A DNA stretch of 64,000 nucleotides from positions 1,260 to 65,259 of the forward strand of contig DAOUGB010000089.1 in NCBI GenBank assembly GCA_034429595.1. The letters are read 5' to 3'. Both the position numbers and the translations under genes were made by a program. Below the pieces are notes generated by a model. It did no database searches and was not told the DNA's origin. It was given only the letters and a program-made list of their open reading frames with translations. Shown here in pieces: positions 1 to 32,589 of the stretch (its first letter is position 1; the number at the start of each line of letters is the position of its first letter). This DNA comes from Dehalococcoidales bacterium. GTDB lineage: Bacteria > Chloroflexota > Dehalococcoidia > Dehalococcoidales > RBG-16-60-22.

Positions 1-476
1 CGGTAGCCAATGCCGCGGCGCCGGTGGTGATGATGCCGCTGCACAAAGGCGCGGACAGCTTTATGTCCATCAAGCAGTACGAGACCTTCTACTGGCCCAC
101 CTTTAAGAAGGTAGTCATGGCGATGGTCAATGAAGGTATTTTCCCCATCCTCTTCGCGGAAGGCAGTTATAACAACCGTCTGGACATCATCGGCGATTTC
201 CCCAAAGGTTCCGTGGCCTGGTACTTCGACCAGACGGATATCTTTAAAGCTAAAGAAAAAATCGGCGACCGGTGCTGCATTATCGGCAACGTGCCCACCT
301 CGCTGGTCATGACGGGCACGCCGCAGGCAGTCAAGGAACATTGCCGGAAACTCATCGAGGTCTGCGGCAAGGGCGGCGGCTACGTCCTGGCCGGCGGCGC
401 CAATGTGGACGAAGGCAATCCGGAAAACCTGCGCGCGATGATGGCGGCGGTCCAAGAATACGGCGTATATAAATAG
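1..476 (+). CDS. URO-D (uroporphyrinogen decarboxylase) family protein, putative corrinoid-dependent methyltransferase; paralog 0, 5'-truncated by window edge
   Basis: Frame is open from base 3 (VANAAAPVVMMPLHKG...). The 150 aa align block for block with the C-termini of the 7 complete paralogs downstream (PLHKG, YWPTFKK, CCIIGNVP, CRKLIEVCGKGGGYVL, NLRAMMAA..EYG). Confidence 0.8.
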   Translation, partial: VANAAAPVVMMPLHKGADSFMSIKQYETFYWPTFKKVVMAMVNEGIFPILFAEGSYNNRLDIIGDFPKGSVAWYFDQTDIFKAKEKIGDRCCIIGNVPTSLVMTGTPQAVKEHCRKLIEVCGKGGGYVLAGGANVDEGNPENLRAMMAAVQEYGVYK

Positions 477-581
477 GATATTGGCACATTAACGGTTGGC
501 AGCGCTAACTTAGCTTTTCCCATTACCGGGAATGGCGGCGCTGCCAATTCTAATCCACTGTCTTTGAGCGGGGGGATTGAT

Positions 582-1910
582 ATGTCAAAAGAATGGTCAG
601 AGATGACCTGGCAGGAGAAACGCGAGGAACGCTTTAAAAAGTGGCTTGACACATCGAATTTTAAACTAAGCCCGGCAGCGGCTAAAAAATATCAGACCCG
701 CGCCACCCGGATGATGAAAGCCATCAAGATGGAAATACCGGACCGCGTCCCGATACACATCGCCGGGAATTCCATGATAGCGTATAACGCCGGGTATACG
801 CTTAAAGACGTAATTTACAACCCTTCAAAAATCGTTCCCGCCTGGGCAAAATGGCTCAAGGACTATGACCAGGATTCCAATGATGCCCCCATGTTCTTTT
901 CCGCTAAGGTTTATGAGCTGCTGGATTACAAGGTCAACAAGTGGCCGGGGGGCGGCCTGCCGGACAACGCGACGCTGCAGAACTTTGTGGAAAAGGAATA
1001 CATGAAGGCGGATGAATACGAGCTTTTCATGAAGGACCAGTTCGACTTCGGCCTGCGGCGTTTTATCCCGCGCGCTTACGGCGTTTTCGAGCCCTGCGCC
1101 AATCTGCCCCCGATGTCATCTTACCAGGGGCTGCCCAACCAGCTGATGGCCATGTGCCTGGACCCGGCTTTCCAGAAACTCTTTAAAGCGGTCAGCGCGG
1201 CCGCCAAAGAGCAGGTAAAGTTCCAGAAAGCCATGGGCGAATGCGCCAGGCTATCTCTGGAAGAAGGATATCCGCCGCTGATGGGCGGCGTGATGCTGGC
1301 GCCCTTCGATACCGTGGCGGATATGCTCCGCGGGACCCACGGCTCCGTCATGGATATGTACCGCCAGCCGGAAAAACTGATAGAATGTCTGGAATACCTC
1401 GCGGAGCAGAGTATGAAGGCGGCGGTGGGCATGGTCAATATGGCAAAGAGCCCCGTCATTTTCGTCCCGATGCATAAAGGCGATGACAGTTTTATGTCGG
1501 TCAAACAGTTCGAAAAGTTTTACTGGCCCACCTTCCGCAAACTGCTGCTGGGGTGTATCAACGAGGGCTGTGTGCCGATGATGGTCATCGACGGCAGCTA
1601 TAATGAAGCGCGTTTAAAGATAATCAGCGAGCTGCCGCGCAGTTCCGTTATCTGGACGATGGAAAAAACGGATATGTTCATGGCCAAGAAAATACTGGGC
1701 GATTCCGCCTGTATCTCCGGTAACGTCACCGCGGTACAGCTCTATACGCAAAAACCGGCGGCGATAAAGGAATATTGCCGCAAACTCATTGAAGGCTGCG
1801 CTCCGGGCGGCGGCTATATCCTTTCACTCGGCTCCGGTATCGATAAATGTGACCCGGCGAATCTGCACGCTATCATCGAAGCCGCTGAAGAATACGGATA
1901 TTATAAATAA
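582..1910 (+). CDS. URO-D family protein, putative substrate:corrinoid methyltransferase (MT-I/MtvB-like), paralog 1
   Basis: Long ORF. ATG at 582 gives MSKEWSEMTWQEKREERF, matching the paralog N-termini (the track ORF starts at TTG 564). Has the GN..P and GGGYIL blocks typical of the URO-D fold. Confidence 0.8.
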   Translation: MSKEWSEMTWQEKREERFKKWLDTSNFKLSPAAAKKYQTRATRMMKAIKMEIPDRVPIHIAGNSMIAYNAGYTLKDVIYNPSKIVPAWAKWLKDYDQDSNDAPMFFSAKVYELLDYKVNKWPGGGLPDNATLQNFVEKEYMKADEYELFMKDQFDFGLRRFIPRAYGVFEPCANLPPMSSYQGLPNQLMAMCLDPAFQKLFKAVSAAAKEQVKFQKAMGECARLSLEEGYPPLMGGVMLAPFDTVADMLRGTHGSVMDMYRQPEKLIECLEYLAEQSMKAAVGMVNMAKSPVIFVPMHKGDDSFMSVKQFEKFYWPTFRKLLLGCINEGCVPMMVIDGSYNEARLKIISELPRSSVIWTMEKTDMFMAKKILGDSACISGNVTAVQLYTQKPAAIKEYCRKLIEGCAPGGGYILSLGSGIDKCDPANLHAIIEAAEEYGYYK

Positions 1911-1996
1911 CGGCTATAGCTTTTAGCCGGCCCGTTTTTCATCGGCAGGACATGGAATATGGTTATTCCCGCCGGCGCGTAATTTGGGGTACGGTT

Positions 1997-3322
1997 ATGG
2001 ATAAAAAATGGTCGGAATTGACTCCGGCGGAAAAGCGGGAGAAGCGGTTTGGCGATTGGCTGAAGCCTCCTACCGGATTTAACAGCCCGGCCGCGGCAAA
2101 AGCCTACGATACCCGTATCAAGAGACTGGCGGATACGCTCCTCATGAAAAAGACGGACCGGGTGCCGGTCACGCTGCCGGTGGATAATTTCCCGGCGCTC
2201 TATTACGGCTCGTCGGTCCACGAGGTGATGTACGATTATGACGCGCTTTATAGCGTCTGGAAAAAATTCCTGAATGATTTTGAAATGGATACGGTTTCCG
2301 GCCCCGGCATGGTCTACCCGGCCAGGGTGCTGGACATCGTCGATTATAAACTGTATGCCTGGCCCGGCCACGGGCTGCCCTTAAACGCCAACGGTCACCA
2401 GTTCGTCGAAGGGGAATACATGACGGCGGACGAGTATGATGCCCTGATTACCGACCCATCCGATTATTTAATGCGGGTGTTTCTGCCCCGGGCTATGGGT
2501 TCTTTAAAAGCCTTCAGCAAACTGCCGTCCCTTACCTCCCTTCTCGGCAAGCCCCAGGCTTTATTGATGGCGGCGGGACAGCCGGACGTGCAGGCCGCTT
2601 TCCAGGCGCTGGCGGACGCCGGGCGGGAAATGAACAGGTACCAGCAGATAGTCATGAGGTTCGGTGAAGAGGCGCAGACCGCCGGTTATCCCTCCATCAG
2701 GGGCGGGGTAGCGATGGCGCCGTTCGATTCCCTGGGCGATGCGCTGCGCGGCACCAAGGGCGTTATCATGGACATGTACCGCCGCCCGGAGAAAGTCCTC
2801 AAAGCCGTGGAGGTGATTACGGATTTTGCCATCCGCAACACCATCGAGCAGATGAACCAGACGGGCGGCGTGATGGTCACTTTCCCCCTGCATAAAGGCG
2901 ATGATACCTTCATGTCCGCTACCCAGTTCGATAAATTCTACTGGCCTTCCCTAAAGAGATTCATCCTTGCCTTGATTGATGAAGGCATCATGGTTTCCCT
3001 CTTCGCCGAGGGGAAATACAACAGCCGCCTCGAACGCGTTAAAGACCTGCCTTCCGGCTGGATACTCTGGCACTTCGACCAGACGGATATGACGCGGGCC
3101 AAGCAGGCCCTCGGCAATACCCAGTGCCTGGCCGGCAACGTACCCTCCTCGCTGATGTGCACCGGCACGCCGGAAGACGTGAAGGAATACTGCCGGAAGC
3201 TCATCGAGCTTTGTGCCGAAGACGGCGGCTATATTTTAACCGGCGGCGCCAGCTGCGCGGAAGTGAAGGCGGAAAACCTGCGCGCGATGATGGCCGCCGC
3301 CAAAGAATACGGGAAGTTTTAA
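1997..3322 (+). CDS. URO-D family protein, putative corrinoid-dependent methyltransferase, paralog 2
   Basis: ATG at 1997 gives MDKKWSELTPAEKREKRF. Shares PLHKGDDTFMS, CLAGNVP and CRKLIELCAEDGGYIL with its siblings. Confidence 0.8.
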   Translation: MDKKWSELTPAEKREKRFGDWLKPPTGFNSPAAAKAYDTRIKRLADTLLMKKTDRVPVTLPVDNFPALYYGSSVHEVMYDYDALYSVWKKFLNDFEMDTVSGPGMVYPARVLDIVDYKLYAWPGHGLPLNANGHQFVEGEYMTADEYDALITDPSDYLMRVFLPRAMGSLKAFSKLPSLTSLLGKPQALLMAAGQPDVQAAFQALADAGREMNRYQQIVMRFGEEAQTAGYPSIRGGVAMAPFDSLGDALRGTKGVIMDMYRRPEKVLKAVEVITDFAIRNTIEQMNQTGGVMVTFPLHKGDDTFMSATQFDKFYWPSLKRFILALIDEGIMVSLFAEGKYNSRLERVKDLPSGWILWHFDQTDMTRAKQALGNTQCLAGNVPSSLMCTGTPEDVKEYCRKLIELCAEDGGYILTGGASCAEVKAENLRAMMAAAKEYGKF

Positions 3323-3435
3323 GGAGAAAAGGGAATAGCAGACGGTATTCCAGGTAACCTCCCTTACCCGAGCCTGTAAACTGTTAACCGAAAACGGCAA
3401 ACGTTGTTGGTCATTGAAGAAGGAGGCGTATCATC

Positions 3436-4779
3436 ATGGCTGAAACTAAAAACTGGGAAGAAATGACCTGGCAGGAAAAGCGGGAGGCGCGCTTTGAACG
3501 GTGGATGAATCCTCCGGACGTAAAATTCGTCAGCAAGGAAGCGGAACAGCTTTATAAAGCGCGTGTCAAAAGATTTATTAAAGCCATCAAGCTGGAAGAA
3601 CCGGACCGCGTGCCGGTCATGCTCCCCACCGGGAACTACCCGGCTTACTGGGGCGGCGCGTCCTTCCGCACGCTGATGTATGATTATGATAAAGGCACGG
3701 AAATCTGGAAGAAATATTTAAAAGCCTTCGGGGACATGGACACCTTTAACGGGCCATCCCTCGTCCCCTCCGGCAAAATAGCGGCGGAGCTTCCCTCCAA
3801 GCTCCAGAAGCTGCCCGGCCTCGGCCTGCCGGAAGACGCCACCATGAACCAGTTCGTCGAAGGCGAGTACATGATGGCGGATGAATATGATAAATACATG
3901 ATGGACCCGTCCGATTATAACCTCCGCACCATGCTGCCCCGCACCTCTCCCTTCTTCGAGGCGTTCAGGCGGCTGCCGCCCATCCGTTCGCTGATGGGCA
4001 CATCCTGGGTCTCCATCATGGCCGACCCGGATATCCAGAAAATCATCAAGACCCTTTCGGGCCTGGTGGATGAGCAGAATAAATGGATGAAAGCCAATTT
4101 TGAAATCAACCAGTGGATTAAAGAGCAGGGATATCCTTCACTGTTCGGCGGCGGCATCATGGCGGGCGCGCCCTTCGACCATTTTGCCGATGCGTTACGC
4201 GGCACGCAGGGCATCGCCCGGGACATGTTCCGCCAGCCCAAGAAGCTGCATGAAGCCATGGAATGCTATCTCAAACTGACCATCGAGACCACCATTAAGA
4301 ACTTCCCGATGACCGCCTGCCCCATCTGCATGATGCCGCTGCACAAAGGCGATGACTGCTTCATGTCGGACAAGCAGTTCGCGGAGTTTTACTGGCCCAC
4401 TTACCGCCGGCTGCTGCTGGCGATGGTCAATGAAGGCCTGGTGCCGATGCCGTTCGCGGAAGGGCGCTATACCAACCGGCTCAAACAGATTAACGATACA
4501 CCGCCGAGCGGCGTGGTCTGGTACTTCGACCAGACGGACATGAAGGAAGCCAAGCGGATTCTCGGCGATGTTTGCTGTATCGCCGGTAACGTGCCCACCT
4601 CCGTTGTCATCAAGGGTACCGTCCAGCAGGTGAAGGACTACTGCAAGAAATTGATTGATGACTGCGCGCCGGGCGGCGGCTTTATCCTGGCTGGCGGCGC
4701 CAGCATCGATAACGGCAAGATGGAAAACCTCAAGGCCATGATGGACGCGGCCAAAGAATACGGGGTGTACAAGAAATAA
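3436..4779 (+). CDS. URO-D family protein, putative corrinoid-dependent methyltransferase, paralog 3
   Basis: GGAGG lies upstream of the ATG. Shows the same conserved blocks as its siblings. Confidence 0.8.
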   Translation: MAETKNWEEMTWQEKREARFERWMNPPDVKFVSKEAEQLYKARVKRFIKAIKLEEPDRVPVMLPTGNYPAYWGGASFRTLMYDYDKGTEIWKKYLKAFGDMDTFNGPSLVPSGKIAAELPSKLQKLPGLGLPEDATMNQFVEGEYMMADEYDKYMMDPSDYNLRTMLPRTSPFFEAFRRLPPIRSLMGTSWVSIMADPDIQKIIKTLSGLVDEQNKWMKANFEINQWIKEQGYPSLFGGGIMAGAPFDHFADALRGTQGIARDMFRQPKKLHEAMECYLKLTIETTIKNFPMTACPICMMPLHKGDDCFMSDKQFAEFYWPTYRRLLLAMVNEGLVPMPFAEGRYTNRLKQINDTPPSGVVWYFDQTDMKEAKRILGDVCCIAGNVPTSVVIKGTVQQVKDYCKKLIDDCAPGGGFILAGGASIDNGKMENLKAMMDAAKEYGVYKK

Positions 4780-4786
4780 AGTTTGG

Positions 4787-4903
4787 TGTCATTGCGAGGA
4801 GTACAGCGACGAAGCAATCCCGTTGACTACCAGTGAGATTGCTTCGCCTCCTTCCGATGGTTCGACAAGCTCACCATGAGCGGAAGGATGGTCTCGCAGT
4901 GGC
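4787..4903. repeat. Type-A palindromic MITE-like repeat, copy 1 (TGTCATTGCGAGG..AGCGACGAAGCAATCC..GATTGCTTCGCC.. degenerate CTCGCAGTGGC end)
   Basis: Intergenic between paralogs 3 and 4. Nested inverted repeats. Shares termini and inner arms with copies at 6279, 33280, 45465 and 62829. Confidence 0.75.
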
Positions 4904-4936
4904 GGCATATATGAATTTTTAATTTTGGAGGAAGTA

Positions 4937-6271
4937 ATGTTTAAAAGACCGGAAAACTGGGATAAACTGACCTGGCAGGAGAAGCGGGAACTGCGCCTCA
5001 ATCAGTGGATAAGCGCGCCCGGGATAAAATTCGTCAGTAAAGAAGCGGAAAAGAACTATAAAGCCCGCGCCACCCGCCTGGCCCAGTCCGTAAAAATGGA
5101 AAAAGGCGACCGCGTGCCCTGCATGGTGCCTACCGGCTGGTTCCCGGCCAAGAACGCCGGCGTCACCCTTAAGGAGGTCATGTACGACCCGGAGCTGATG
5201 AAGAAGGTCTGGCTGAAATTCGTGGATGAATTCGAATCGGACACTTTTGACGGCACGCTCTTCTTCCAGGCGCCGATTAACGATTTAATGGAGGTCAAGA
5301 CCCAGAAATGGCCCGGCCACGGCCTGCCGGATAATGCCCATTCCTACCAGTACGTCGAGGGCGTTTACATGAAAGCGGACGAGTACGACCTTTTCATGAA
5401 GGACCCGTTCGATTTCCAGTTGCGCAAGCTGTTGCCCCGCACCTATGGCGTCTTCGAGCCTTTTGCAGATGTCCCCTCTTTCTCTTCCTACCAGGGGCTG
5501 CCCAACCGTCTGATGGCCATGTGCCTGGACCCCAAGTTCCAGAAACTTTTTAAAGCTATCAATGAAGCCAGCAAATACCTGCCGGCTTTCGGCAAAGCTA
5601 CCATGGAGACCAGTCAGGCCGCCCAGTCTAAAGGTTTCCCGATGTTCCGCGGCGGCATGGCGGTAGCGCCGTTTGACGTCTTCGCGGACAGCCTGCGCGG
5701 CACGCAGGGCATCGTCATGGACATGTTCCGCCAGCCGGATAAAATCCACCAGGCGATGGAGTTTGTCTTGCCCGGGCTTGTTTCCGGCGCTACCAGCATG
5801 TGTGATGCCGCCGATTGCCCGGTGGTGATGATGCCGCTGCACAAGGGCGATGATACCTTTATGTCCGATAAGCAGTTCGAGGTCTTTTACTGGCCTACCT
5901 TCCGGCGGATGCTGCTGGGCATGGTGGAAGAAGGGCTGGTGCCTTTCCCGGTGGCGGAAGGCGCTTACAACCGCCGCCTGGAGTATATTTCGGACATGCC
6001 TAAATCCGCCGTCACCTGGATGTTCGACCAGACGAATATGGCCAACGCCAAGAAAACAGTCGGCAAGGTGTCCTGCATCGCCGGGAACGTACCGGTCTCC
6101 GTGGCCTACACCGGCACGGAAAAAGATATGAAAGAGTACTGCCGCAAGCTCATCGAGACCTGCGCTCCGGGCGGCGGCTATATCCTTTCCGGCGGCGCTA
6201 CTTTTGATATGGCCAAGCCGGAAAACATCCGCGCCATGATGGCGGCGGCCAAAGAATACGGAAAATATTAA
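4937..6271 (+). CDS. URO-D family protein, putative corrinoid-dependent methyltransferase, paralog 4
   Basis: ATG at 4937 follows GGAGGA (the track ORF starts at TTG 4925). Conserved paralog blocks are present. Confidence 0.8.
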   Translation: MFKRPENWDKLTWQEKRELRLNQWISAPGIKFVSKEAEKNYKARATRLAQSVKMEKGDRVPCMVPTGWFPAKNAGVTLKEVMYDPELMKKVWLKFVDEFESDTFDGTLFFQAPINDLMEVKTQKWPGHGLPDNAHSYQYVEGVYMKADEYDLFMKDPFDFQLRKLLPRTYGVFEPFADVPSFSSYQGLPNRLMAMCLDPKFQKLFKAINEASKYLPAFGKATMETSQAAQSKGFPMFRGGMAVAPFDVFADSLRGTQGIVMDMFRQPDKIHQAMEFVLPGLVSGATSMCDAADCPVVMMPLHKGDDTFMSDKQFEVFYWPTFRRMLLGMVEEGLVPFPVAEGAYNRRLEYISDMPKSAVTWMFDQTNMANAKKTVGKVSCIAGNVPVSVAYTGTEKDMKEYCRKLIETCAPGGGYILSGGATFDMAKPENIRAMMAAAKEYGKY

Positions 6272-6278
6272 AAATAAT

Positions 6279-6368
6279 TGTCATGGCGAGGAGCGAAGCG
6301 ACGCGGCAATCCCGCCGACTAACCGTGAGATTGCTTCGCCTTCCCTTCGGGTATGGCTCGCAATGACA
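6279..6368. repeat. Type-A palindromic MITE-like repeat, copy 2
   Basis: TGTCATGGCGAGGAGCGAAGCGACGCGGCAATCC ... GAGATTGCTTCGCC ... GCTCGCAATGACA. Intergenic between paralogs 4 and 5. Confidence 0.8.
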
Positions 6369-6390
6369 GAACAAAAATAAGGAGGTTCAC

Positions 6391-7737
6391 ATGGAAGGCA
6401 TCGAAAATTGGAAAGATTTGACGCCGGAACAGAAAAGGGCCGCGCGGTTCAAGCGCTGGCTGGACGCCCCCGGCGTAAAATTCAAGGATAAAGCGGCGGA
6501 ACAGCTTTATAAGACCAGAGTAAGCCGGTTCATCAAGGCCATCAGCCTGGAAGAGGCCGACCGCGTGCCCTGCAACCTGCCGGTAGGCTATTTCCCCGCC
6601 TACTATGCCGGTTACGACCTCAAGACGGTCATGTACGATTATGAAAAGCAGCGGGATGCCTGGCTGAAGTTCATGAAGGACTTCGGGGATATGGACAGCT
6701 TCGGCGGGCCGGGGCTAATTCTGCCGGCCAAAGCGCTGGAAATCATCGACCATAAACTGCACAAGTGGCCGGGGCACGGCATCGGCGATGACGTGCCTTC
6801 CTACCAGTTCGTCGAAGGCGAGTACATGAAAAAGGACGAATACGACAAGCTTATCCGGGACCCCTCCGATTTCTGGCTGCGCACCTTTATGCCGCGCCAG
6901 GCCGGGGCCTTTAAGCCTTTAGCCAATCTGCCCCACCTCAACCCGATGATAGGCCTGCCCATTTTCTTCCTGACAAAGTTCGCCGACCCCGCGGTACAGG
7001 GAGCGTATATCAAGATATTCCAGGCGGCTGAAGAAATAATTAAATGGATGAAAATTACCGGCGAGGTAGGGCGTATAGCCATACAGTCCGGCTACCCCGG
7101 CTTCAGCAGCGGCGGTTTTTCCGGCGCGCCCTTCGATATGCTGACGGATATGCTGCGCGGCACGACAGGCATCTTTATGGATATGTACCGCCAGCCGGAG
7201 AAAATCCACGAGGCGATGGAAGCCCTGGTGCCCATCGTCATCGAGGAAGCGGTCAGCGGCGCGGACAATTCACTATCGCCGATTGTCATGATGCCGCTGC
7301 ACAAGGGTGAAAAGGGCTTCATGTCTCCCAAACAGTTCGAAACCTTCTACTGGCCCACTTTTAAGAAAGTGCTGCTGGGCATCATTAATGAAGGGCTGAT
7401 ACCCCTGCCTTTCGCCGAGGGCAACTATATCCCCCGCCTGGATATCATCCAGGATATGCCCAAAGCCTCGATGGTCTGGTACTTCGAGTACATGGACATG
7501 GCGCAGGCCAAGAAGACGGTAGGCCGGACGAACTGTATTTGCGGCAACCTGCCTATTTCCATCATGGTCACCGGCACGGTCAAGGACGTTAAAGAAGGCT
7601 GCCGCAAGCTCATCGAGGACTGTGCGCCCGGCGGCGGCTATATTCTGACATCCGCGGCCTCGATGGACCAGGGGAAAATAGAGAATCTGCACGCGATGAT
7701 GGACGCCGCCAAAGAATACGGCGTCTATAAGAAATAG
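6391..7737 (+). CDS. URO-D family protein, putative corrinoid-dependent methyltransferase, paralog 5
   Basis: AAGGAGG lies upstream. Conserved paralog blocks are present (PLHKGEKGFMS variant). Confidence 0.8.
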   Translation: MEGIENWKDLTPEQKRAARFKRWLDAPGVKFKDKAAEQLYKTRVSRFIKAISLEEADRVPCNLPVGYFPAYYAGYDLKTVMYDYEKQRDAWLKFMKDFGDMDSFGGPGLILPAKALEIIDHKLHKWPGHGIGDDVPSYQFVEGEYMKKDEYDKLIRDPSDFWLRTFMPRQAGAFKPLANLPHLNPMIGLPIFFLTKFADPAVQGAYIKIFQAAEEIIKWMKITGEVGRIAIQSGYPGFSSGGFSGAPFDMLTDMLRGTTGIFMDMYRQPEKIHEAMEALVPIVIEEAVSGADNSLSPIVMMPLHKGEKGFMSPKQFETFYWPTFKKVLLGIINEGLIPLPFAEGNYIPRLDIIQDMPKASMVWYFEYMDMAQAKKTVGRTNCICGNLPISIMVTGTVKDVKEGCRKLIEDCAPGGGYILTSAASMDQGKIENLHAMMDAAKEYGVYKK

Positions 7738-7794
7738 GAACTCTCCCCTGATTTTATCGAAGGGGTTTCCCTAAAAAATATATCGAGGTTGATT

Positions 7795-9129
7795 ATGGAA
7801 GGCGTTGCCAACTGGGAAAAACTTACCTGGCAGGAAAAGCGCGAAGAGCGCTTTAAAAAATGGCTGGAGGCTCCCGGCGTGACCTTTAACAGCCCGGCGG
7901 CGAAAAAAGCCTACCAGGAACGGGTTACCCGCTTTATTAAAGTCATCAAGCTGGAAGAACCGGACCGCGTTCCCGTGATGCTGCCGTCCGGTTATTATCC
8001 CGCCATATATGCCGGATATTCGCTTAAAGAAGTGATGTACGATTACCGGAAACTGGCGGATGCCTGGCGGAAATTCAACCGTGATTTCCCGTCGGACAGC
8101 TTTGCCAGCCCGGGGCTGGTCTACCCCGGCCGCGTTATCGAGAAAATCGGGCACAAGCTGCATAAGTGGCCCGGCCACGGCCTCCCGGATAACGCCCAGA
8201 TGTACCAGTTTATCGAGGGCGTTTACATGAAGCCGGGTGAGTATGACGACTTTATGGAGAACTTTACGGACTACTGGATGCGGGTCTTTCTGCCCCGTAC
8301 CGCCGGCGCGCTGGAGCCGTTCCAATACCTGGCGGGATTCCAGCCGGTCCTGACCAACCCCCTCGGCTGGGTAGCGTCTTTTGCTAATCCGGATGTGCAG
8401 AAAGCGTTTGAAACTTTGATTGAAGCCGGCAAAGAAATCGCGCAATGGCGTGACGCCGTCGGCGAGGTCAGCCGCGAAGCGCTGGCGGAAGGGCATGCCT
8501 CTTTCGGGGGCGGTATGGCCGGCGCGCCCTTCGATAATCTTTCCGATGTCTTGCGCGGCACCACGGGCATCGTCATGGACATGTACCGCCAGCCGGACAA
8601 GATAAAAGAAGCGATGGAAAAACTGGTCCCCGTCATCGTCAGGGGGGCGGTGCGGGGCGCTGACGCGTCTTTGAGCCCGGTCTGCTCCATGCCCCTGCAC
8701 AAAGGCGATAATTCCTTTATGTCCGGCAAGCAGTTCGAGGAATTTTACTGGCCTACTTTTAAAAAAGTACTGCTCGGCATGGTTAACGAGGGCCTGGTGC
8801 CCATGCCTTTTGCCGAGGGCAATTACGAACCGCGGCTGGATATCATCAAAGAAATGCCAAAGTCGTCCGTCGTCTGGTACTTCGAGGTGATGGATATGGC
8901 CAAGGCCAAGGAAAAGCTCGGCGGCGCGGCCTGCATCGCCGGCAACCTGCCGTCTTCTCTTATCGTCACCAGCACGCCTACAATCGTTAAGGAAGGCTGC
9001 CGCAAGCTCATCGAGACCTGCGGGAAGGGCGGCGGCTATATATTAGCCGGAGCGTCCAGTGTCAGTAAATGCAATCCGGATAATCTACGCGCCATGCAGG
9101 CAGCCGCCGAAGAGTACGGAAGATATTAG
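7795..9129 (+). CDS. URO-D family protein, putative corrinoid-dependent methyltransferase, paralog 6
   Basis: ATG at 7795 (the track ORF starts at TTG 7789). Conserved paralog blocks are present. Confidence 0.8.
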   Translation: MEGVANWEKLTWQEKREERFKKWLEAPGVTFNSPAAKKAYQERVTRFIKVIKLEEPDRVPVMLPSGYYPAIYAGYSLKEVMYDYRKLADAWRKFNRDFPSDSFASPGLVYPGRVIEKIGHKLHKWPGHGLPDNAQMYQFIEGVYMKPGEYDDFMENFTDYWMRVFLPRTAGALEPFQYLAGFQPVLTNPLGWVASFANPDVQKAFETLIEAGKEIAQWRDAVGEVSREALAEGHASFGGGMAGAPFDNLSDVLRGTTGIVMDMYRQPDKIKEAMEKLVPVIVRGAVRGADASLSPVCSMPLHKGDNSFMSGKQFEEFYWPTFKKVLLGMVNEGLVPMPFAEGNYEPRLDIIKEMPKSSVVWYFEVMDMAKAKEKLGGAACIAGNLPSSLIVTSTPTIVKEGCRKLIETCGKGGGYILAGASSVSKCNPDNLRAMQAAAEEYGRY

Positions 9130-9289
9130 GGAGAAAGTATACAGTAGACAGTTTGCAGTAAGCCCCCGCCTGCTTTTTCCCCCGACTGTTGGCTGTTAAC
9201 TGGAAACTCTTAACTATATCCCTCCCTTATTAGCATTTTAGCGGATGCAGGCAGTAAGATATTAAAGCATAATATGGGGGTGGCATAAT

Positions 9290-10627
9290 ATGGCAACAGC
9301 GAAGAAATGGGAAGAAATGACCTGGCAGGAAAAGCGCGAGGAGCGCTTTAAACGCTGGCTCAATCCAGGCATCAAATTCAATAATAAGGAAGCGGAGAAG
9401 CTTTACAAAGAAAGGACTACCCGCTTCATCAAAGCGATCAAGCTGGAAGAGCCGGACCGCGTGCCGTGTATGCTGCCCTCCGGCTTTTTCCCGGCTTATT
9501 ATGCCGGCTACGACCTCAAGACGGTCATGTACGACTATGATAAGTTAAAGCAGGCTTACCTCAAGTTCGTTGCCGAATTCGATATGGACACCTATACCGG
9601 ACCCAGCCTGGTCTTCCCCGGGCGGGCCCTGGATATTACCGACCACCGTCTGCATAAATGGCCGGGCCACGGCCTGCCGGACAAGACATCGCTTTACCAG
9701 TATGTAGAAAAGGATTATATGAAAGCGGACGAGTATCCCCTGCTGCTCGGCAACGCGGGTGATTTCTGGTGGCGTTATCTTCTCCCGCGCGCCGTGGGGT
9801 CTTTAGAGCCGTTAAGCAAACTGCCGCAGATGAACGGCATGATGGGCGTGCCTTTAAACTTCTACGCGGCGATGGCCGAGCCGGAAGTCGAGGTTGCTTT
9901 CAAGACCATGATCGAGGCCGGGAAAGAGGTCCGGAAGTGGCAGAAAGCGGTAAACGAGATAAATATGGCTACGCTGGCCGCCGGCGTTCCTAACCTGCGC
10001 GGCGGCGGCATGGGCGGCGCGCCATTCGATAACATCGCGGATATGCTGCGGGGCACGCAGGGTATGGTGATGGATATGTACCGCCAGCCGGAAAAGCTGC
10101 ATGAAGCGATGGAAAGAATCGTCCCCAATACCATCAAGGGTGCGGTGGCGGTGGCAGATGCCACTAATTGCCCGCTTTGTTTTATGCCCCTCCACAAGGG
10201 CGATGAGAGCTTTATGTCCCCCAAGCAGTTCGAGACCTTCTACTGGCCTACTTACCGCCGCGTGCTGATGGGGATGATTGAGGAAGGGCTGGTGCCTTAC
10301 CCCTTTGCGGAAGGAAGATACGGCGCACGTCTGGAATTGCTCGCGGAAATGCCGAAGAGCTCGATATTGTGGTCGTTCGAGACTATCGATATGGCGCGGG
10401 CGAAAAAGGTGCTGGGCGGCGTGGCTTGTATCGCCGGGAATGTGCCGGCTTCCGTGCTGTGCACCAAAACACCTGAAGATGTCAAAGAGGCCTGCCGGCA
10501 GTTAATCGAGACCTGCGCGCCGGGCGGCGGCTATATTTTAACCGGGGCGGCCAGCATGAACGAAGGCAATCCGGATAACCTCCGGGCCATGATGGAAGCC
10601 GCCAGAGAATACGGTGTCTATCACTAA
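9290..10627 (+). CDS. URO-D family protein, putative corrinoid-dependent methyltransferase, paralog 7
   Basis: Begins MATAKKWEEMTWQEKREERFKRWL. Conserved paralog blocks are present. Confidence 0.8.
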   Translation: MATAKKWEEMTWQEKREERFKRWLNPGIKFNNKEAEKLYKERTTRFIKAIKLEEPDRVPCMLPSGFFPAYYAGYDLKTVMYDYDKLKQAYLKFVAEFDMDTYTGPSLVFPGRALDITDHRLHKWPGHGLPDKTSLYQYVEKDYMKADEYPLLLGNAGDFWWRYLLPRAVGSLEPLSKLPQMNGMMGVPLNFYAAMAEPEVEVAFKTMIEAGKEVRKWQKAVNEINMATLAAGVPNLRGGGMGGAPFDNIADMLRGTQGMVMDMYRQPEKLHEAMERIVPNTIKGAVAVADATNCPLCFMPLHKGDESFMSPKQFETFYWPTYRRVLMGMIEEGLVPYPFAEGRYGARLELLAEMPKSSILWSFETIDMARAKKVLGGVACIAGNVPASVLCTKTPEDVKEACRQLIETCAPGGGYILTGAASMNEGNPDNLRAMMEAAREYGVYH

Positions 10628-10642
10628 ATTAGGAGAGAGAAA

Positions 10643-11500
10643 ATGGAAACAAAAGTATCGACCCCTACCAAAGAAGTCATTATTTCCTATGACCGGCCGA
10701 CGGTCATCATCGGCGAACGCATCAATCCCACCGGCAAGAAGAAGCTGCAGGAAGCCCTCAAAGCCGGCGACCTTGCCATCGTGAAGAAGGAAGCAATCGA
10801 GCAGGTTGCCGCCGGAGCGACCATCCTCGACTGTAATGTCAATGCGCCGGGCGTCAATGACGTAAAACTGCTGCCCGAGGCAATTAAACTCATCCAGGAT
10901 ACGGTGGATGTCCCCCTCTGCATCGATAGCCCCAACGCTGATGCCCTGGAAGCGGGACTTAAAGTCTACAAGGGCAAGCCGCTGGTCAATTCCATCAGCG
11001 GTGAGAAGGCCCGGCTGGAGCGCGTCCTGCCTTTAATTAAGCACTACGGGGCTGCGGTCATCGGCCTGGCCCAGGACGATGCCGGTATCCCCAAGAGCAC
11101 GGAACGCCGCGTGGATATCACCAAGCGTATCGTTGAAGCCTGCGAGAAGGCGGGCGTGCCCAGGGAAGACCTCGTTATCGATGTGATGACCTATTCCATC
11201 GGCGCCGAGCCCAAGGCCGCCAAAGACGTTCTTAATGCCCTGCGCCAGATACGCCTGGAAATCGGCCTGAACATGACGATGGGCGCTTCTAACATTTCCT
11301 TCGGCATGCCGGACCGTCAGATATTAAACAACGCCTGGATGGCGATGGTCATCGAAGCCGGCGGCACCGCCCTCATCGCCGATGCGGCTAAAGTGATGCC
11401 CGCCGTCCTTTCCGCCGACCTCGTGCTTGGCCGCGACAGGTTTGCCCGGCGCTATCTGGAAGGCTACCGCAAACGTTCCGCGGAACAGCCCCCGAAATAG
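10643..11500 (+). CDS. Pterin-binding (DHPS/MeTr-like) methyltransferase, putative methyl-corrinoid:tetrahydrofolate methyltransferase (MtvA/AcsE-like)
   Basis: 285 aa. Motifs IIGERINPTG, DCNV, LCIDS, LVNSIS and GASNISFG are typical of the pterin-binding TIM barrel of MetH/AcsE-type enzymes. Starts 15 nt after paralog 7, with GGAGAGAG as RBS. Confidence 0.8.
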   Translation: METKVSTPTKEVIISYDRPTVIIGERINPTGKKKLQEALKAGDLAIVKKEAIEQVAAGATILDCNVNAPGVNDVKLLPEAIKLIQDTVDVPLCIDSPNADALEAGLKVYKGKPLVNSISGEKARLERVLPLIKHYGAAVIGLAQDDAGIPKSTERRVDITKRIVEACEKAGVPREDLVIDVMTYSIGAEPKAAKDVLNALRQIRLEIGLNMTMGASNISFGMPDRQILNNAWMAMVIEAGGTALIADAAKVMPAVLSADLVLGRDRFARRYLEGYRKRSAEQPPK

Positions 11501-11695: not shown

Positions 11696-11770
11696 CGCGG
11701 GGTAGAGCAGTGGTAGCTCGTCGGGCTCATAACCCGGAGGCCGTTGGTTCGAATCCAACCCCCGCTACCA
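11696..11770 (+). tRNA. Initiator tRNA-fMet (anticodon CAT at 11728-11730), CCA encoded
   Basis: CGCGGGG acceptor arm with a C1:U72 mismatch. The GGG/CCC run in the anticodon stem (TCGGGCTCATAACCCGA-like) is present. Near-identical in layout to E. coli tRNA-fMet, with a GGTTCGAATCC T-arm. Confidence 0.9.
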
Positions 11771-25622: not shown

Positions 25623-25698
25623 CGCAGGGAGGACAAGTGCTAAGTCTGCCGGTCTCATAAGCCGTGCGAAGCGGGTTCGATTCCCGCCCCTGCTACCA
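25623..25698 (+). tRNA. Atypical tRNA-like gene with CAU anticodon (Met/Ile2-type), possibly a pseudo-tRNA
   Basis: 76 nt with a good T-arm (GCGGGTTCGATTCCCGC), an acceptor stem with a C1:U72 mismatch, a CTCATAA anticodon loop and an encoded CCA. However, the D-arm is irregular (GGAC/GTCT stem shifted by 1 nt, no GG in the D-loop) and 27:43 is a C-U mismatch. Confidence 0.55.
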
Positions 25699-27933: not shown

Positions 27934-28209
27934 ATGCCGAGTTTATTGATGATAATTGCCCGAACCGAGAATTTTAAAAAGGCCTGGCATAATTTAACGG
28001 TTGAGCTAAAATCTTTAGCTCGTAAAGCGATTAATAATCTGATGATAGATATGCACTATCCGGCTCTAAGAGTAAAAAAGATACAAGGCGTAAATAAAAT
28101 ATGGGAAGCCAGAGTCAGCCGGTCGCTCCGGATGACCTTTCAGCTTGAAGGTGATACGATCATTCTGCGGAATATAGGGCAGCATGATGAAACATTAGAG
28201 CGACCTTAG
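27934..28209 (+). CDS. RelE/ParE-superfamily type II toxin
   Basis: 91 aa. KIWEARVSRSLRMTFQLEGDTIILRNIGQHDE matches the RelE/ParE C-terminal pattern (..W.lRv....Ri.y.....i.l...g.H..). Confidence 0.7.
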   Translation: MPSLLMIIARTENFKKAWHNLTVELKSLARKAINNLMIDMHYPALRVKKIQGVNKIWEARVSRSLRMTFQLEGDTIILRNIGQHDETLERP

Positions 28210-28221
28210 GAGATAGAGGAA

Positions 28222-28494
28222 ATGGCGACATACAGCAAAGTAACAAGACACGGACAAATCACTTTACCGTCCCAGGTACGTAAAAGCTTAGATATAGAAG
28301 AGGGTGACCTGATAGAAATTAAAGTAATAGATGAACAAGCCGTACTTGTTCCTAAGAAACTGGTTGATAAAAGTCAGGCGTATTTCTGGACTAAAAAATG
28401 GCAAGAGGGCGAAAAAGCCGCGGATGAAGATATCAAAGCCGGGCGTGTTAAGTCCTTTAAATCTGCCGATGAGCTGATTGAGGATTTAGAGTAA
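28222..28494 (+). CDS. AbrB/MazE-family antitoxin
   Basis: VTRHGQITLPSQVRKSLDIEEGDLIEI is a SpoVT-AbrB domain. Starts 12 nt after the toxin stop. Confidence 0.7.
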   Translation: MATYSKVTRHGQITLPSQVRKSLDIEEGDLIEIKVIDEQAVLVPKKLVDKSQAYFWTKKWQEGEKAADEDIKAGRVKSFKSADELIEDLE

Positions 28495-28522: not shown

Positions 28523-28569
28523 ACAATCCCCCAGAATCAGTAATAGAATCCAGGGGATTGTTGTTTTTT
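28523..28569. terminator. Hairpin terminator between convergent genes
   Basis: ACAATCCCC / GGGGATTGT stem with a 21-nt loop and a following T-run. Confidence 0.5.
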
Positions 28570-29014
28570 ACTTCGTGTACTTCTTGCCCATGCCCGCGGT
28601 AAAATGGAACATCGGCCTGGTGATTTTTCTAATGTTAATGGGGCCGTGCTCCACCCCCGCCGGGATGAAGGCGATAAAGCTCCTATCGATGAAGTTCTGC
28701 TTGCCGTCAATCCAGAATTCTATTTCCCCGTTTAAGTTGTACTGGTCTTTAGGGTCGGTGCCGACCCAGGCGATGGTCTCATCGAAGTCATGAACGTGTT
28801 TCCCGATGGTGCGGGTGGGGTCGCCCTTGGTCTTATCCGGCCAGTCACCGGGGAAGAACCAGGCCGTTTCCATGTAAAAAGCGTCCTTGATGACCTCGCC
28901 ATCCAGGGAAAGCAAACGCTGCGCCTCATGAGGCGCGAAAACCGGCGACCACGGCGCCGCGCCTACCACGTCTTTAAGCTCGGTGACAAAGTATTTCTTA
29001 TCCCACTTAGCCAT
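28568..29014 (-). CDS. Cupin-like small protein, paralog A
   Basis: Has HVHDFDETIAWVGTDP..L.GEIEFWIDG...IPAGVEHGP, the same motif frame as paralogs B and C. Confidence 0.6.
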   Translation of the reverse strand: MAKWDKKYFVTELKDVVGAAPWSPVFAPHEAQRLLSLDGEVIKDAFYMETAWFFPGDWPDKTKGDPTRTIGKHVHDFDETIAWVGTDPKDQYNLNGEIEFWIDGKQNFIDRSFIAFIPAGVEHGPINIRKITRPMFHFTAGMGKKYTK

Positions 29015-29478
29015 TATTGCTTTTTCCCCTTTCTTTTTTCGTGGCCGCCGGGGTCGGCCTGGGCCAGCGTTCCGGCGCCAACCATAATCGTCAGTTCCAG
29101 ATGAGGTTTTTGGTACTTCTTCCAGGTCAGCGGCCCGTGTTTGACGCCTTTAGGCACAAAGACCGCCGATGTTTTATTGATTTTCAGCGGCTGACCGCCC
29201 ACCATGAACTCGATTTCCCCGCCCAGGTCTTCCTGGTTAGCCGGGTCCGTCCCTAGGTGGATAACGATTTCATCATAATCGTGCGCGTGCTCTTCGATAT
29301 GGGGATTGGGGTCCGGCATGGCGAAGACCCAGCCCGTCTCGATGTACATGTTGGCGCCCGGCACCAGGTTATTGCTCATCAAAGTCATCGCCGGGCGGCG
29401 GCCTTTTACCTCAAAATCCGGCGTAACCTCATAGGCGGGCTGGCTGACAAAGTATTTGTTCATGTCTTTTTTGGGCAT
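29014..29478 (-). CDS. Cupin-like small protein, paralog B
   Basis: Has HAHDYDEIVIHLGTDP..LGGEIEFMVGG...VPKGVKHGP. Its stop overlaps the start of paralog A. Confidence 0.6.
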   Translation of the reverse strand: MPKKDMNKYFVSQPAYEVTPDFEVKGRRPAMTLMSNNLVPGANMYIETGWVFAMPDPNPHIEEHAHDYDEIVIHLGTDPANQEDLGGEIEFMVGGQPLKINKTSAVFVPKGVKHGPLTWKKYQKPHLELTIMVGAGTLAQADPGGHEKRKGKKQ

Positions 29479-29494
29479 CTTAACCTCCTGCGGA

Positions 29495-29965
29495 CTATTG
29501 CTTCATGACATAGGCGCCGCTATTGGCGGACTCGAACATAAAGATAGGGGTATCGATTCTTTTTAAAATAATGGGGCAGTGCTTTACGCCCTGGGGAATA
29601 AAGATATAGCAGGTCTTGGTCAGTGTGTAAGGCTCGCCGTCCATCCAGAGCTCGATTTCCCCGCCCAGGTCGCGCGGATGGTTGCGGTTGGAACCGGCGA
29701 ACCCGATTATCTCATCGAAGTCATGGGCGTGCTCCTCTTCGATTTGCACCGGGCCGTCCCCGGTAAGCTGCCAGAGCCATTCGCACCCCGCGAAGAACGA
29801 CCCCTTGACGAAGGCGTCCTGGATGGCGAGCAGCATCGTCCGGTCCAGCGTTTTGCCCGCTTTTTCCTGGTCGTCCATCATTTTCACGTAGGCGGCGGGC
29901 CGCGGCGGCATAAGGTCTTCCGTGATAATGTTTTTGGCGTACTTTTGCGTTTTCTTTATCGCCAT
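29495..29965 (-). CDS. Cupin-like small protein, paralog C
   Basis: Has HAHDFDEIIGFAGSN..LGGEIELWMDG...IPQGVKHCP. Confidence 0.6.
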   Translation of the reverse strand: MAIKKTQKYAKNIITEDLMPPRPAAYVKMMDDQEKAGKTLDRTMLLAIQDAFVKGSFFAGCEWLWQLTGDGPVQIEEEHAHDFDEIIGFAGSNRNHPRDLGGEIELWMDGEPYTLTKTCYIFIPQGVKHCPIILKRIDTPIFMFESANSGAYVMKQ

Positions 29966-30085: not shown

Positions 30086-32176
30086 CTAAATGTTCCTTAC
30101 CACCTGTGAAGCCGTACCGATAGCGTCCGCAATGAGTAAGGGGTCCTGGCAATCGCCGACGGAGTAGACCTCCGGAGCTTTATCTTTTAGTTTTTCGTAC
30201 AGGGCGAGGTTGGGGGATAAAGGCAGGGCGGTCACTATCGTGTCTGCCTGCAGGGCCAGCTTTTCCCCCTCTTTCGTGATAATCGTCAGGCCGTTGCTGG
30301 TTACTTCCATGTCTTTAACGCCGCTGATAAGCCGTACGCCCTTCTTATTGAACCAGGTAAACAGGTAGCCTTGGATAACGTCCACCATGCCCGTTCCCAG
30401 TTTGTCCGCTTTATCCACGATGGTCACCAGCCGGCCGCGCTTGGTAAAATATTCGCCGAGCTCGCAGCCGTGCAAACTCCCCCCGATGATGACCACCCGC
30501 TTCCCGATGGGCAGGTAGAACCTGGTCAGCCAGCGGAGGAGGTTGGGCGGTATAAAGCGTAAATAGGATTTCAGCTGTTTATGCAAAGCCGCGTTGCTGA
30601 CCACGTTTTTATTTTCAATGCCTTTGATATCCGGCGTGGCCTGTAACCCCCCCGCCGCGACGATAATGGCATCCGGCTTCAGTTTATCGGCCGTTTTCTC
30701 GTCAATCTCTTTGCCAAGGTGCATTTTAACGCCCAGGTTCTTGAGCTGGCGCTTATAATACTTAATCAGAGCGGGCAAATCTTCCAGTTCCGTGCCTTTG
30801 ACCACGGCCGCCAGGGGCAGCAGCCCGCCCGTGAAAGGCGTTTTATCGTAGAGGGTTACGTCATGGCCGCGCCGGGCGGCTACCCGGGCGGCTTCCATGC
30901 CCCCCGGCCCCGCGCCGATGACGAGCACCTTTTTCTTTTGCGCCGCCGGCTCGATGGTGTTATAGTCCTTGCCCATGAAAGCGTTGATGCGGCAGCGCCG
31001 CGAACCCAGACAATTTTCGCAGGCGGTGCAGGGCGCGATATCCTTGAGCCTTCCCGCCGCCACTTTGTTGGGGTAATCGGGGTCGGCCTGCAGTCGCCGC
31101 GTCATGGCTATAAAGTCGGCCTTGCCTTCCCGTAAAGCTTTTTCGCCGAGTTCCGCATCGAGTTTGCCCACGACCATCACCGGGATTTTGACCGCCTCTT
31201 TAATCCGGGCGGCCAGGTTCACGTTCCAGGCTTTGCCCCGCCCTTTTACGTCGTAATCTTTAGGGAAGGAACTCAAGGGGATGGGTGGCTCCGGATAGAA
31301 AAGCAGGTCCGGCAGGTACGCGCCGACATGATAGCCGAGCCAGTGGCTGCGCACGTGTATCATGTTCGCACCGGCGGCCTCCAAAAGCCTGGCGGTGGTC
31401 TGCGCGTCTTCTATAGTAATGCATTTTTCATTGGGGATGTCCGCCATCTGCCCGAACTCCGCGGCATTGATGCAGACGGAAACGGGGAAGTCCTGCCCCA
31501 GCCGTTTTTTGATTTCTTTAATGATGGAAGTGACGATGCGCGCCCGGTTTTCCGGCGACCCGCCGTAGGCGTCCTGCCGCCGGTTCCAGAACTTTGACAG
31601 GAAATTATGCAGCAGGTGGCTGCTGGCGGCGTTGATATCCACGCCATCGAACCCGGCTTGCTGCGCGCGTACCGCCGCGCTGGCGAATTTACCGATAATT
31701 ATCTCGATTTCCGGGACGGTCAGCTCCCGCGGCATCTGGTTATGGAAGTCATTTTCCGAATTTAATGTTACGCGGGAAGCGGCTATCGGCGGGCCTAAAA
31801 AGGCGGGGTTGGGGTCTTCAAAAAGCGGGGTCTGCCACGGGCCGTCATGGTTCATCTGCATGAAGGTAGGGCAGTTGTATTTATGGATAATTTCTACCAG
31901 TTCGGTCATCATGGGGATGTATTTATCGTCATCGATGCGGTAGCGGAAACGCCAGCGCGCCCCGGCCGGATAATCAATAATCGGGGATTCCACGATGAGC
32001 AACCCCACCCCGCCCCGCGCCAGCGATTCGTAAAAAGCGCGCATGGCGCCGTTCAATTGCGTCTCATCTTCGTGGGACATGAAGGTGCCGGCGCCCGTCT
32101 TGATAATCCTGTTCCGAGTCTTGACCGGCCCGATATAACCCGGCTCCAGCAGCTTTTGGAATTTCGTATTGCCCAT
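30086..32176 (-). CDS. Old-yellow-enzyme family NADH:flavin oxidoreductase fused to an FAD/NAD(P)-binding domain (2-enoate reductase / 2,4-dienoyl-CoA reductase-like)
   Basis: 696 aa. N-terminal OYE TIM barrel, a Cys cluster (CTACENCLGSRRC), then GAGPGG dinucleotide-binding motifs. Confidence 0.85.
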   Translation of the reverse strand: MGNTKFQKLLEPGYIGPVKTRNRIIKTGAGTFMSHEDETQLNGAMRAFYESLARGGVGLLIVESPIIDYPAGARWRFRYRIDDDKYIPMMTELVEIIHKYNCPTFMQMNHDGPWQTPLFEDPNPAFLGPPIAASRVTLNSENDFHNQMPRELTVPEIEIIIGKFASAAVRAQQAGFDGVDINAASSHLLHNFLSKFWNRRQDAYGGSPENRARIVTSIIKEIKKRLGQDFPVSVCINAAEFGQMADIPNEKCITIEDAQTTARLLEAAGANMIHVRSHWLGYHVGAYLPDLLFYPEPPIPLSSFPKDYDVKGRGKAWNVNLAARIKEAVKIPVMVVGKLDAELGEKALREGKADFIAMTRRLQADPDYPNKVAAGRLKDIAPCTACENCLGSRRCRINAFMGKDYNTIEPAAQKKKVLVIGAGPGGMEAARVAARRGHDVTLYDKTPFTGGLLPLAAVVKGTELEDLPALIKYYKRQLKNLGVKMHLGKEIDEKTADKLKPDAIIVAAGGLQATPDIKGIENKNVVSNAALHKQLKSYLRFIPPNLLRWLTRFYLPIGKRVVIIGGSLHGCELGEYFTKRGRLVTIVDKADKLGTGMVDVIQGYLFTWFNKKGVRLISGVKDMEVTSNGLTIITKEGEKLALQADTIVTALPLSPNLALYEKLKDKAPEVYSVGDCQDPLLIADAIGTASQVVRNI

Positions 32177-32337: not shown

Positions 32338-32589
32338 GTGGTAAGGAAAGTGATACAGGTTCCTTTTGATGAGGAGCTTTTAAAAAACCTGAACAATCTT
32401 TCAAAAAAACGGGGCAGTGCCAGAGCGGAGATAATCCGTCAAGCTTGCTCGCGTTATATACGCCAGGCTGAAAATGAGGATTTGGACAGGATTTATCAAC
32501 AGGGGTATGGAAGATTCCCCGAGCAGTCGGAAGAGGGTGAAGGACAAATAGCCATATCCGGAGAGATTTTATCCAGGGAGCCGTGGTAA
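32338..32589 (+). CDS. CopG/ribbon-helix-helix antitoxin
   Basis: VIQVPFDEELLKNLNNLSKKRGSARAEIIRQACSRYI is an RHH fold pattern. The start is uncertain (GTG 32326, 32338 or 32350); the track start at 32239 lies upstream of the promoter. Confidence 0.65.
   Translation: MVRKVIQVPFDEELLKNLNNLSKKRGSARAEIIRQACSRYIRQAENEDLDRIYQQGYGRFPEQSEEGEGQIAISGEILSREPW

Follow-up and report, generated by a model that had tools for sequence, protein, structure and literature searches.

The window, a stretch of 64,000 nucleotides from an uncultured Dehalococcoidales bacterium (contig DAOUGB010000089.1), was analyzed for an array of methyltransferase-like genes at its left end. Positions 1..11500 of the plus strand carry one truncated and seven complete open reading frames (ORFs) for proteins with a uroporphyrinogen decarboxylase (URO-D) fold, here called U1 to U8, followed by an ORF for a 285-residue pterin-binding protein, here called P (Table 1). 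The complete U proteins comprise 441-448 residues counted from ATG starts. The intergenic gaps from U1 through P measure, in order, 105, 86, 113, 157, 119, 57, 160, and 15 nt, and a Shine-Dalgarno-like sequence lies 5' of most array genes. An earlier reading of the same DNA, made from the sequence alone (the original prediction), had described this single-strand layout, including the gaps of 15-160 nt and the pterin-binding ORF 15 nt past the last paralog, and its coordinates were reproduced. It had proposed that the array is a battery of substrate-specific substrate:corrinoid methyltransferases (MT-I) that share one methyltransferase (MT-II) acting on the tetrahydrofolate (THF) side.

Pfam URO-D (PF01208) matched all eight paralogs (E = 5e-18 to 1e-25) and Pterin_bind matched P, as the original prediction had supposed. 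The URO-D match was confined to profile positions ~140-346, the C-terminal half, the N-terminal ~240 residues of the U proteins being too diverged for this hidden Markov model. Pairwise protein identity among U1 to U8 was 40-59%, with 88 of 451 alignment columns invariant, and the shared motifs named in the original prediction were found in the alignment with minor exceptions such as HKGA in U1. At the DNA level, the paralogs were 64-73% identical and the longest exact run in common was ~30 nt. These values mark the genes as old duplicates without recent duplication or gene conversion; the original description of them as old and diverged thus holds. The array was nearly identical in independently assembled metagenomes: a locus from the comparison set described below, L001, differed from the window by 5 mismatches in 14,779 nt, and an exact-product look-up found the U4 product on contigs of several metagenomes.

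Long antisense ORFs within the U genes (e.g., 7771..8700 on the minus strand) were rejected as artifacts because they lie wholly within conserved plus-strand genes and because similar ones overlie U and corrinoid genes in related loci. In the gap between U2 and U3, a GC-rich hairpin followed by a T-run (window 1911-1929, plus strand) could attenuate transcription; it is the sole plus-strand terminator-like site wholly within an intergenic gap of the array.

Table 1. Genes of the array, its boundary tRNA genes, and related features in other loci (designated by L numbers). MT-I and MT-II are predicted functions; positions without a locus number refer to the window.
Feature	Position	Strand	Description
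U1	1..476 (ORF frame 3, 3..476)	+	C-terminal 157 residues of first MT-I paralog, cut at window edge; Pfam URO-D E = 5.4e-18
U1, full gene	L001 405..1736		443 residues; full-length sequence from L001, L002, and L003
U2	582..1910	+	MT-I paralog, 442 residues; alternative TTG start at 564; orthologs 62-83% identical in 45 related genes
U3	1997..3322	+	MT-I paralog, 441 residues; alternative ATG at 1952; Pfam URO-D E = 1.5e-24; rare orthogroup, 3 orthologs found
U4	3436..4779	+	MT-I paralog, 447 residues; Pfam URO-D E = 5.8e-23; orthologs 65-82% identical
U5	4937..6271	+	MT-I paralog, 444 residues; alternative TTG at 4925; orthologs 74-88% identical
U6	6391..7737	+	MT-I paralog, 448 residues; orthologs 68-81% identical
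U7	7795..9129	+	MT-I paralog, 444 residues; alternative TTG at 7789; orthologs 69-85% identical
U8	9290..10627	+	MT-I paralog, 445 residues; Pfam URO-D E = 1.1e-25; paralog modeled with AlphaFold2
P	10643..11500	+	MT-II, pterin-binding TIM barrel, 285 residues; PF00809 E = 2.5e-29
tRNA-Met(CAT)	11696..11770	+	Right-hand boundary of cassette; Rfam 66 bits; ARAGORN call
tRNA-Gly of bracket	L011 7624-7698	-	Same bracket in L043, L022, L008, L023, L026, and L059
tRNA-Met of bracket	L011 19770-19844	+	Same bracket in L043, L022, L008, L023, L026, and L059
U-like singletons	L014 1885-4154; L018 3456-11326; L045 5859-11332; L029; L040		~48-50% identical to U8; nearest the U2 group in neighbor-joining tree

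A corrinoid protein gene and a conserved cassette

The original prediction had noted no corrinoid protein in the window and had pointed to the DNA upstream of base 1 as the place for one. This is true of the window itself, and the gene sits immediately to its left. Locus L001 overlaps the window, reaches 1,260 nt further left, and completes U1. Directly 5' of U1 it encodes (L001 2..403) the C-terminal 133 residues of a B12-binding protein, in which the motifs GDIHDIG (DxHxxG), SGFL, and GGG occur. In related metagenome-assembled genomes (MAGs), the full-length corrinoid protein has ~210 residues, carries the Pfam domains B12-binding_2 (PF02607) and B12-binding (PF02310), and is 38-43% identical to the corrinoid protein CdmC of Acetobacterium dehalogenans. 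The array-bearing contigs L001, L002, and L003 and the 69-kb contig of L078 all stop within or beside the corrinoid gene. These assembly breaks suggest either a repeat, possibly several near-identical corrinoid genes, or strain variation.

The array was compared with 74 loci from GTDB species genomes and with named homologs, almost all of which came from Dehalococcoidales or Dehalococcoidia MAGs (peat, aquifer sediment, fen, sludge, and similar sources). The order corrinoid protein, two to eight URO-D-type genes, and pterin-binding gene recurred in most related loci of at least 12 kb, and it held even in relatives whose U genes were only ~50-66% identical to those of the window. Nine related loci, including the distant RBG_16_60_22 locus, were scanned for tRNA genes with ARAGORN. 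A minus-strand tRNA-Gly(CCC) lay 5' of the corrinoid gene in all nine, and a plus-strand tRNA-Met(CAT) followed P in seven, the other two loci ending before that position. Gene content outside both tRNAs varied between MAGs. The tRNA-bracketed cassette resembles either a conserved site in the chromosome or a module that is transferred whole.

Within the cassette, each window paralog was ~65-88% identical to its positional orthologs and no more than ~60% identical to any other paralog. The genes kept the order U1, U2, U3 or another type, U4, U5, U6, U7, and U8, with lineage-specific losses, and the orthogroups of U1 to U8 had 34, 45, 3, 31, 30, 17, 11, and 25 members, respectively, in the sampled loci. 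The recurrence of positional orthologs in a kept order across MAGs indicates that the duplications predate the divergence of these lineages and that each copy has been retained under selection.

Two neighborhoods of the cassette stood out. An Opp/Dpp-type ABC importer, consisting of an SBP_bac_5 lipoprotein, two permeases, and two ATPases, lies right after the MT-II gene in L015 (7658-13503) and L052 (13033-18673), a position that hints at substrate uptake. In a SPRUCE peat MAG that is a close relative (L023 5663-7311, minus strand), the tRNA-Gly is flanked on its outer side by two ORFs of 270-274 residues whose N-termini are similar; a scan of one of them (5663-6487) identified an IclR-family regulator. 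Regulators of this family often respond to aromatic compounds.

Relation to characterized methyltransferases and proposed methyl transfer

Three-component corrinoid systems pair an MT-I of URO-D fold with a methyl-corrinoid:THF (or coenzyme M) methyltransferase; examples are MtvABC of Moorella, the O-demethylases of Acetobacterium and Desulfitobacterium, and MtaABC of methanogens. We compared the U proteins by blastp with reference MT-I sequences from Supplementary Data 3 of the paper on CdmB, the chloromethane:corrinoid MT-I of A. dehalogenans (structure PDB 9rui), which groups CdmB with MtvB, OdmB, VdmB, and MtoB in a UroD superfamily of MT-I enzymes (PMC13222342). MtvB of Moorella was the best match for every paralog, with 28-35% identity over ~410 residues and E values down to 4e-73 (U8, 34% identity, E = 3.8e-73). 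Identities to MtoB were 26-32% for the Archaeoglobus fulgidus enzyme and 25-30% for that of Methermicoccus shengliensis, and identity to CdmB was 22-28%. Matches to the short-type OdmB and VdmB (E = 1e-7 to above 0.1), CmuA, MecE/C, and UroD were marginal. Among PDB sequences, CdmB was the sole strong match, over its full length (E = 2.8e-30 with a single sequence and 1.9e-54 with the family profile), the profile reaching 1.5e-3 for UroD structures and 0.015 for MtaA.

Homologs of the U proteins carry the database name "uroporphyrinogen-III decarboxylase", and some clusters that lack corrinoid genes contain U-like singletons. Both would fit URO-D-fold enzymes of another chemistry, HemE-like or other decarboxylases, that stand beside a corrinoid protein and an MT-II by coincidence. 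We consider this extremely improbable. The hemE model TIGR01464, with a cutoff of 302.95 bits, gave scores of 18.5-25.7; the U proteins show far stronger homology to MtvB, MtoB, and CdmB than to UroD; and the corrinoid protein-U array-P layout persists among the diverged relatives described above. Grouping with genuine HemE enzymes, which the original prediction had named as the competing outcome, is excluded by the TIGR01464 scores and the MtvB matches. A confident AlphaFold2 model of U8 (pLDDT 93.9, pTM 0.92) showed a UroD/MtaA TIM-barrel fold, in line with the URO-D fold of the original prediction; in a Foldseek search of the PDB it superposed on UroD and MtaA barrels with TM scores, normalized to the target, of 0.64-0.69. 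Although UroD structures were the top matches, the PDB library is older than the release of CdmB, so the result supports the fold only and not the subfamily. In a neighbor-joining tree, the long MtvB, MtoB, CdmB, and Dehalococcoidales sequences formed a group apart from OdmB, VdmB, CmuA, Mec, and UroD, and the window paralogs paired with their orthologs. We claim no sister group, because deep branching by neighbor joining alone is unreliable with saturated distances.

The pterin-binding assignment of P stands as originally made: the ORF scored 103 bits with Pterin_bind (cutoff 25.5) and is 37% identical to MtvA. It also passed NCBIfam NF005719 for methyl-THF:corrinoid/Fe-S protein methyltransferases (291.7 bits; cutoff 259). 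It fell well below the cutoff of the model specific for carbon monoxide dehydrogenase/acetyl-CoA synthase (142.7 versus 370 bits) and is therefore a THF-side methyltransferase of the generic kind rather than AcsE itself. Its best solved relatives were MeTr of C. hydrogenoformans (2yci, E = 4e-42) and the O-demethylase MT-II of Desulfitobacterium hafniense (4o0q, E = 9e-41). Further identities were 35% to CdmA, 32% to AcsE, 26-29% to OdmD/VdmD, and 31-38% to MtaA of bacterial methanol systems; MtoA matched weakly (29% over 214 residues, E = 1e-8).

Corrinoid methyl-transfer half-reactions are reversible in principle, and the best NCBIfam matches of the U proteins, weak ones of 35-61 bits, were to MtaA/MtbA/CmuA-type models. 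Flow in reverse, with P transferring the methyl group of methyl-THF to the corrinoid protein and the U proteins acting as MtaA-like methylcobamide:acceptor methyltransferases on thiols or phenols, nevertheless seems very unlikely. These scores are far under the model cutoffs of 235-600 bits, and an MtaA/MtbA-type identity was rejected on 37-40 bits with NF040654 (cutoff 400) and 28-46 bits with TIGR01463 (cutoff 235). The His-x-Cys zinc ligands of MtaA are absent from the U proteins because MtaA LHICG aligns with PFAEG, and the idea that His302 and Cys380 of the U proteins are remnants of an MtaA-type zinc site was rejected, the MtaA HxC aligning elsewhere. The family profile favors the MT-I CdmB over MtaA (1.9e-54 versus 0.015), and the best characterized relatives are all substrate:corrinoid MT-I enzymes.

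Several features set the U proteins apart within the long-type enzymes. In a multiple alignment, an N-terminal extension of ~35 residues (the W..T.EKRE.RF..W box) and an insertion of ~20 residues near residues 175-195 were present in the Dehalococcoidales proteins and missing from MtvB, MtoB, and CdmB. An exhaustive profile search of 1.84 billion cluster representatives gave 804 matches with a threshold of E <= 1e-30 and 6,639 with one of E <= 1e-3. Of the 150 best representatives, only the top-scoring few dozen full-length matches covered the extension; the rest begin near profile position 32-39, like MtvB. One representative, P0138 (692 residues), has its MT-I domain at 260-691 behind an unexplained 260-residue N-terminal part and may be a fusion protein, perhaps one that includes a corrinoid domain as CmuA does. 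His302 (PLHKG) is kept in all eight paralogs and is common to MtvB (TLHRG), MtoB (PLHL), and, among the five long A. dehalogenans paralogs in the alignment, four (PLHM); CdmB has Trp at this position (PVWY). Cys380 is common to the U proteins, MtvB, MtoB1, and CdmB, and two further cysteines, Cys402 and Cys409, are specific to the clade. At sixteen positions, the residue is conserved inside each orthogroup but varies from one orthogroup to another. These positions are concentrated at 86-122, 160-164, 243-250 (on either side of the invariant APFD), and 343-365 (following the invariant AEG), and would fit the pattern of specificity determinants.

From this combination of genes, we judge it likely that the region makes up the greater part of a single operon, which would encode a three-component corrinoid-dependent methyl-transfer system. 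The ~210-residue protein encoded just left of the window would carry a cobamide. In its Co(I) state it would dock on one of the eight MtvB-type MT-I enzymes and attack the methyl group of the substrate, yielding methyl-Co(III) corrinoid protein and demethylated substrate. The methylated protein would then dock on P, where the methyl group would pass to THF and Co(I) would be regenerated. Methyl-THF would presumably enter C1 metabolism, for oxidation or for acetyl-CoA synthesis via the Wood-Ljungdahl enzymes that some Dehalococcoidia are reported to have. Each MT-I most likely recognizes a different methyl donor, probably phenyl methyl ethers of lignin or humic material. The battery of substrate-specific enzymes sharing one THF-side partner, as first proposed, is supported by the retention of orthogroups and by their specific residues.

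As to substrate class, we lean toward methoxylated aromatics, aryl methyl ethers being the most likely substrates because of the affinity to MtvB and MtoB and the retained His302. Assignment to the CdmB-type haloalkane MT-I clade was rejected: the U proteins are 22-28% identical to CdmB, versus the at least 40% by which the CdmB paper defined close homologs (PMC13222342), and have His302 in place of Trp. The same machinery could still serve, in some or all paralogs, non-ether donors such as halomethanes, methylated sulfur compounds, or other small methylated molecules, a reading that overlaps the aryl ether one and that we hold to be unlikely but appreciable. The order Dehalococcoidales is known for organohalide metabolism. 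The ABC transporter after P in L015 and L052 suggests imported polar substrates. CdmB, a clear full-length homolog (1.9e-54), accepts haloalkanes such as chloromethane and not methoxy aromatics, though its nearest characterized relative is an O-demethylase (PMC13222342). For every paralog, however, MtvB is closer than CdmB, and the His302 common to MtvB and MtoB is kept in all eight where CdmB has Trp. MT-I enzymes for quaternary and methyl-amines have other folds.

Some observations weigh against an operon for aryl ether demethylation. The U proteins are at most 35% identical to any characterized MT-I, and close relatives of O-demethylases can differ in substrate, as CdmB does in acting on haloalkanes (PMC13222342). 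Some paralogs may accordingly use non-ether donors, since CdmB shows that clade membership alone does not give the substrate class. U-like singletons exist without corrinoid protein or MT-II (Table 1), next to DUF6282, UGSC-family, DHDPS-like, carboxylesterase, SDR, and MarR genes; they may use a corrinoid protein and MT-II in trans, or do something else. Transcription as a single operon is putative, and promoter and terminator scans gave nothing above shuffled-sequence expectation. No RACo-type activase was found in the window, in agreement with the original prediction, or in 79 loci by tblastn with the first ~400 residues of A. dehalogenans AE, a search that took in 10 kb to either side of 74 related loci; other organisms often have the activase gene at a separate site. 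The ~600-residue ORFs upstream in relatives were rejected as RACo, being CotH-like proteins or FAD flavoproteins. The annotated parts of the window (about 20-55 kb) carry housekeeping and unrelated genes, with no genes of C1 or Wood-Ljungdahl pathways among them. As to regulation, Rfam gave no match to a cobalamin riboswitch in the window or in four related loci.

A broader view, which we offer as speculation and think improbable, is that the cassette, with up to eight or more MT-I orthogroups, is a lineage-defining catabolic module of non-organohalide-respiring Dehalococcoidales, whose paralogs span aryl methyl ethers and halomethanes or methyl-sulfur compounds. If so, the hosts would live in peat, sediment, and digesters by scavenging methyl groups in general, and the order known for organohalide respiration would hold a second corrinoid-based route of dehalogenation, independent of reductive dehalogenases.

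Other features of the window

Beyond the array, a minus-strand gene for a 254-residue protein (35504-36268) adjoins a DegV gene and matches Pfam Heliorhodopsin (PF18761), a light-sensing-type rhodopsin family, here in a presumably anaerobic Dehalococcoidales genome. Also on the minus strand, three tandem paralogous ORFs of ~150 residues (28568-29965) gave only sub-threshold Cupin_2 matches. Directly upstream of them, a gene at 30086-32176 (minus strand) encodes a 696-residue Old-Yellow-Enzyme-type flavoprotein (Oxidored_FMN and Pyr_redox_2), with which they may form a small uncharacterized operon; a 146-residue ORF similar to the three is present in L052. On the plus strand lie a toxin-antitoxin pair (RHH_1 and PemK, 32338-32907) and a separate MazE-type antitoxin gene (28222-28494), the latter with a small unannotated ORF (27934-28209) just upstream. 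A weak Rfam tRNA match at 25623-25695 (plus strand; 36 bits, E = 0.0014), without an ARAGORN call, may mark a degenerate tRNA gene or simply be spurious.

Comparison with known systems

Peat, aquifers, sediments, and anaerobic reactors harbor abundant Dehalococcoidales that do not belong to the organohalide-respiring genera and whose growth substrates are poorly known. Because the operon is conserved and strongly expanded, methyl groups, probably from lignin-derived methoxy groups, would be a central resource for these bacteria, with a bearing on anaerobic turnover of lignin and humic matter and on how they compete with methoxydotrophic methanogens and acetogens. The eight enzymes, related but presumably different in specificity, also offer a compact natural panel for studying substrate choice in MtvB/MtoB/CdmB-type enzymes. 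The current annotation of all members as "uroporphyrinogen decarboxylase family" conceals their function in metagenome surveys. Full-text literature searches, of incomplete coverage, found no paper describing this Dehalococcoidales array, so novelty is unproven.

The kind of system is already well known from Mtv, Odm/Vdm, Mto, and Cdm. The vanillate/dicamba O-demethylase MtvABC of Moorella thermoacetica has the same three protein types in a locus (MtvB as MT-I, MtvC as corrinoid protein, and MtvA as MT-II), and U1 to U8 share with MtvB the motifs LH(K/R)G, APFD, FAEG, and C-terminal EYG(V)Y. The array differs in having eight MT-I genes instead of one per corrinoid protein and MT-II, and in its Chloroflexota host. 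MtoABCD, which supports methoxydotrophy in M. shengliensis and A. fulgidus, likewise has a long-type MT-I with the PLH motif and several MtoB paralogs per genome, whereas P is a THF-type, MeTr-like enzyme that MtoA matches weakly. The chloromethane dehalogenase/methyltransferase CdmBCA of A. dehalogenans follows the same logic of B, C, and A components, and CdmB is the only solved clear full-length homolog; the U proteins, unlike CdmB, keep His302, and their identity to CdmB is lower than to MtvB.

The systems OdmABCD/VdmABCD of A. dehalogenans and D. hafniense, which comprise three components and an activase, resemble the array in their pterin-binding MT-II and in the many MT-I paralogs per genome. 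OdmB and VdmB, however, belong to a short (~330 residues) branch of the superfamily that barely matches U1 to U8. The MT-I paralogs of those genomes are perhaps distributed among many operons that each encode a separate corrinoid protein. Set against these systems, what is new is the host order, the sharing of one corrinoid protein and one MT-II by eight MT-I genes, and the conserved tRNA-bracketed cassette, together with a predicted MT-I clade that is distinct, no more than 35% identical to anything characterized, and marked by an N-terminal extension of its own.

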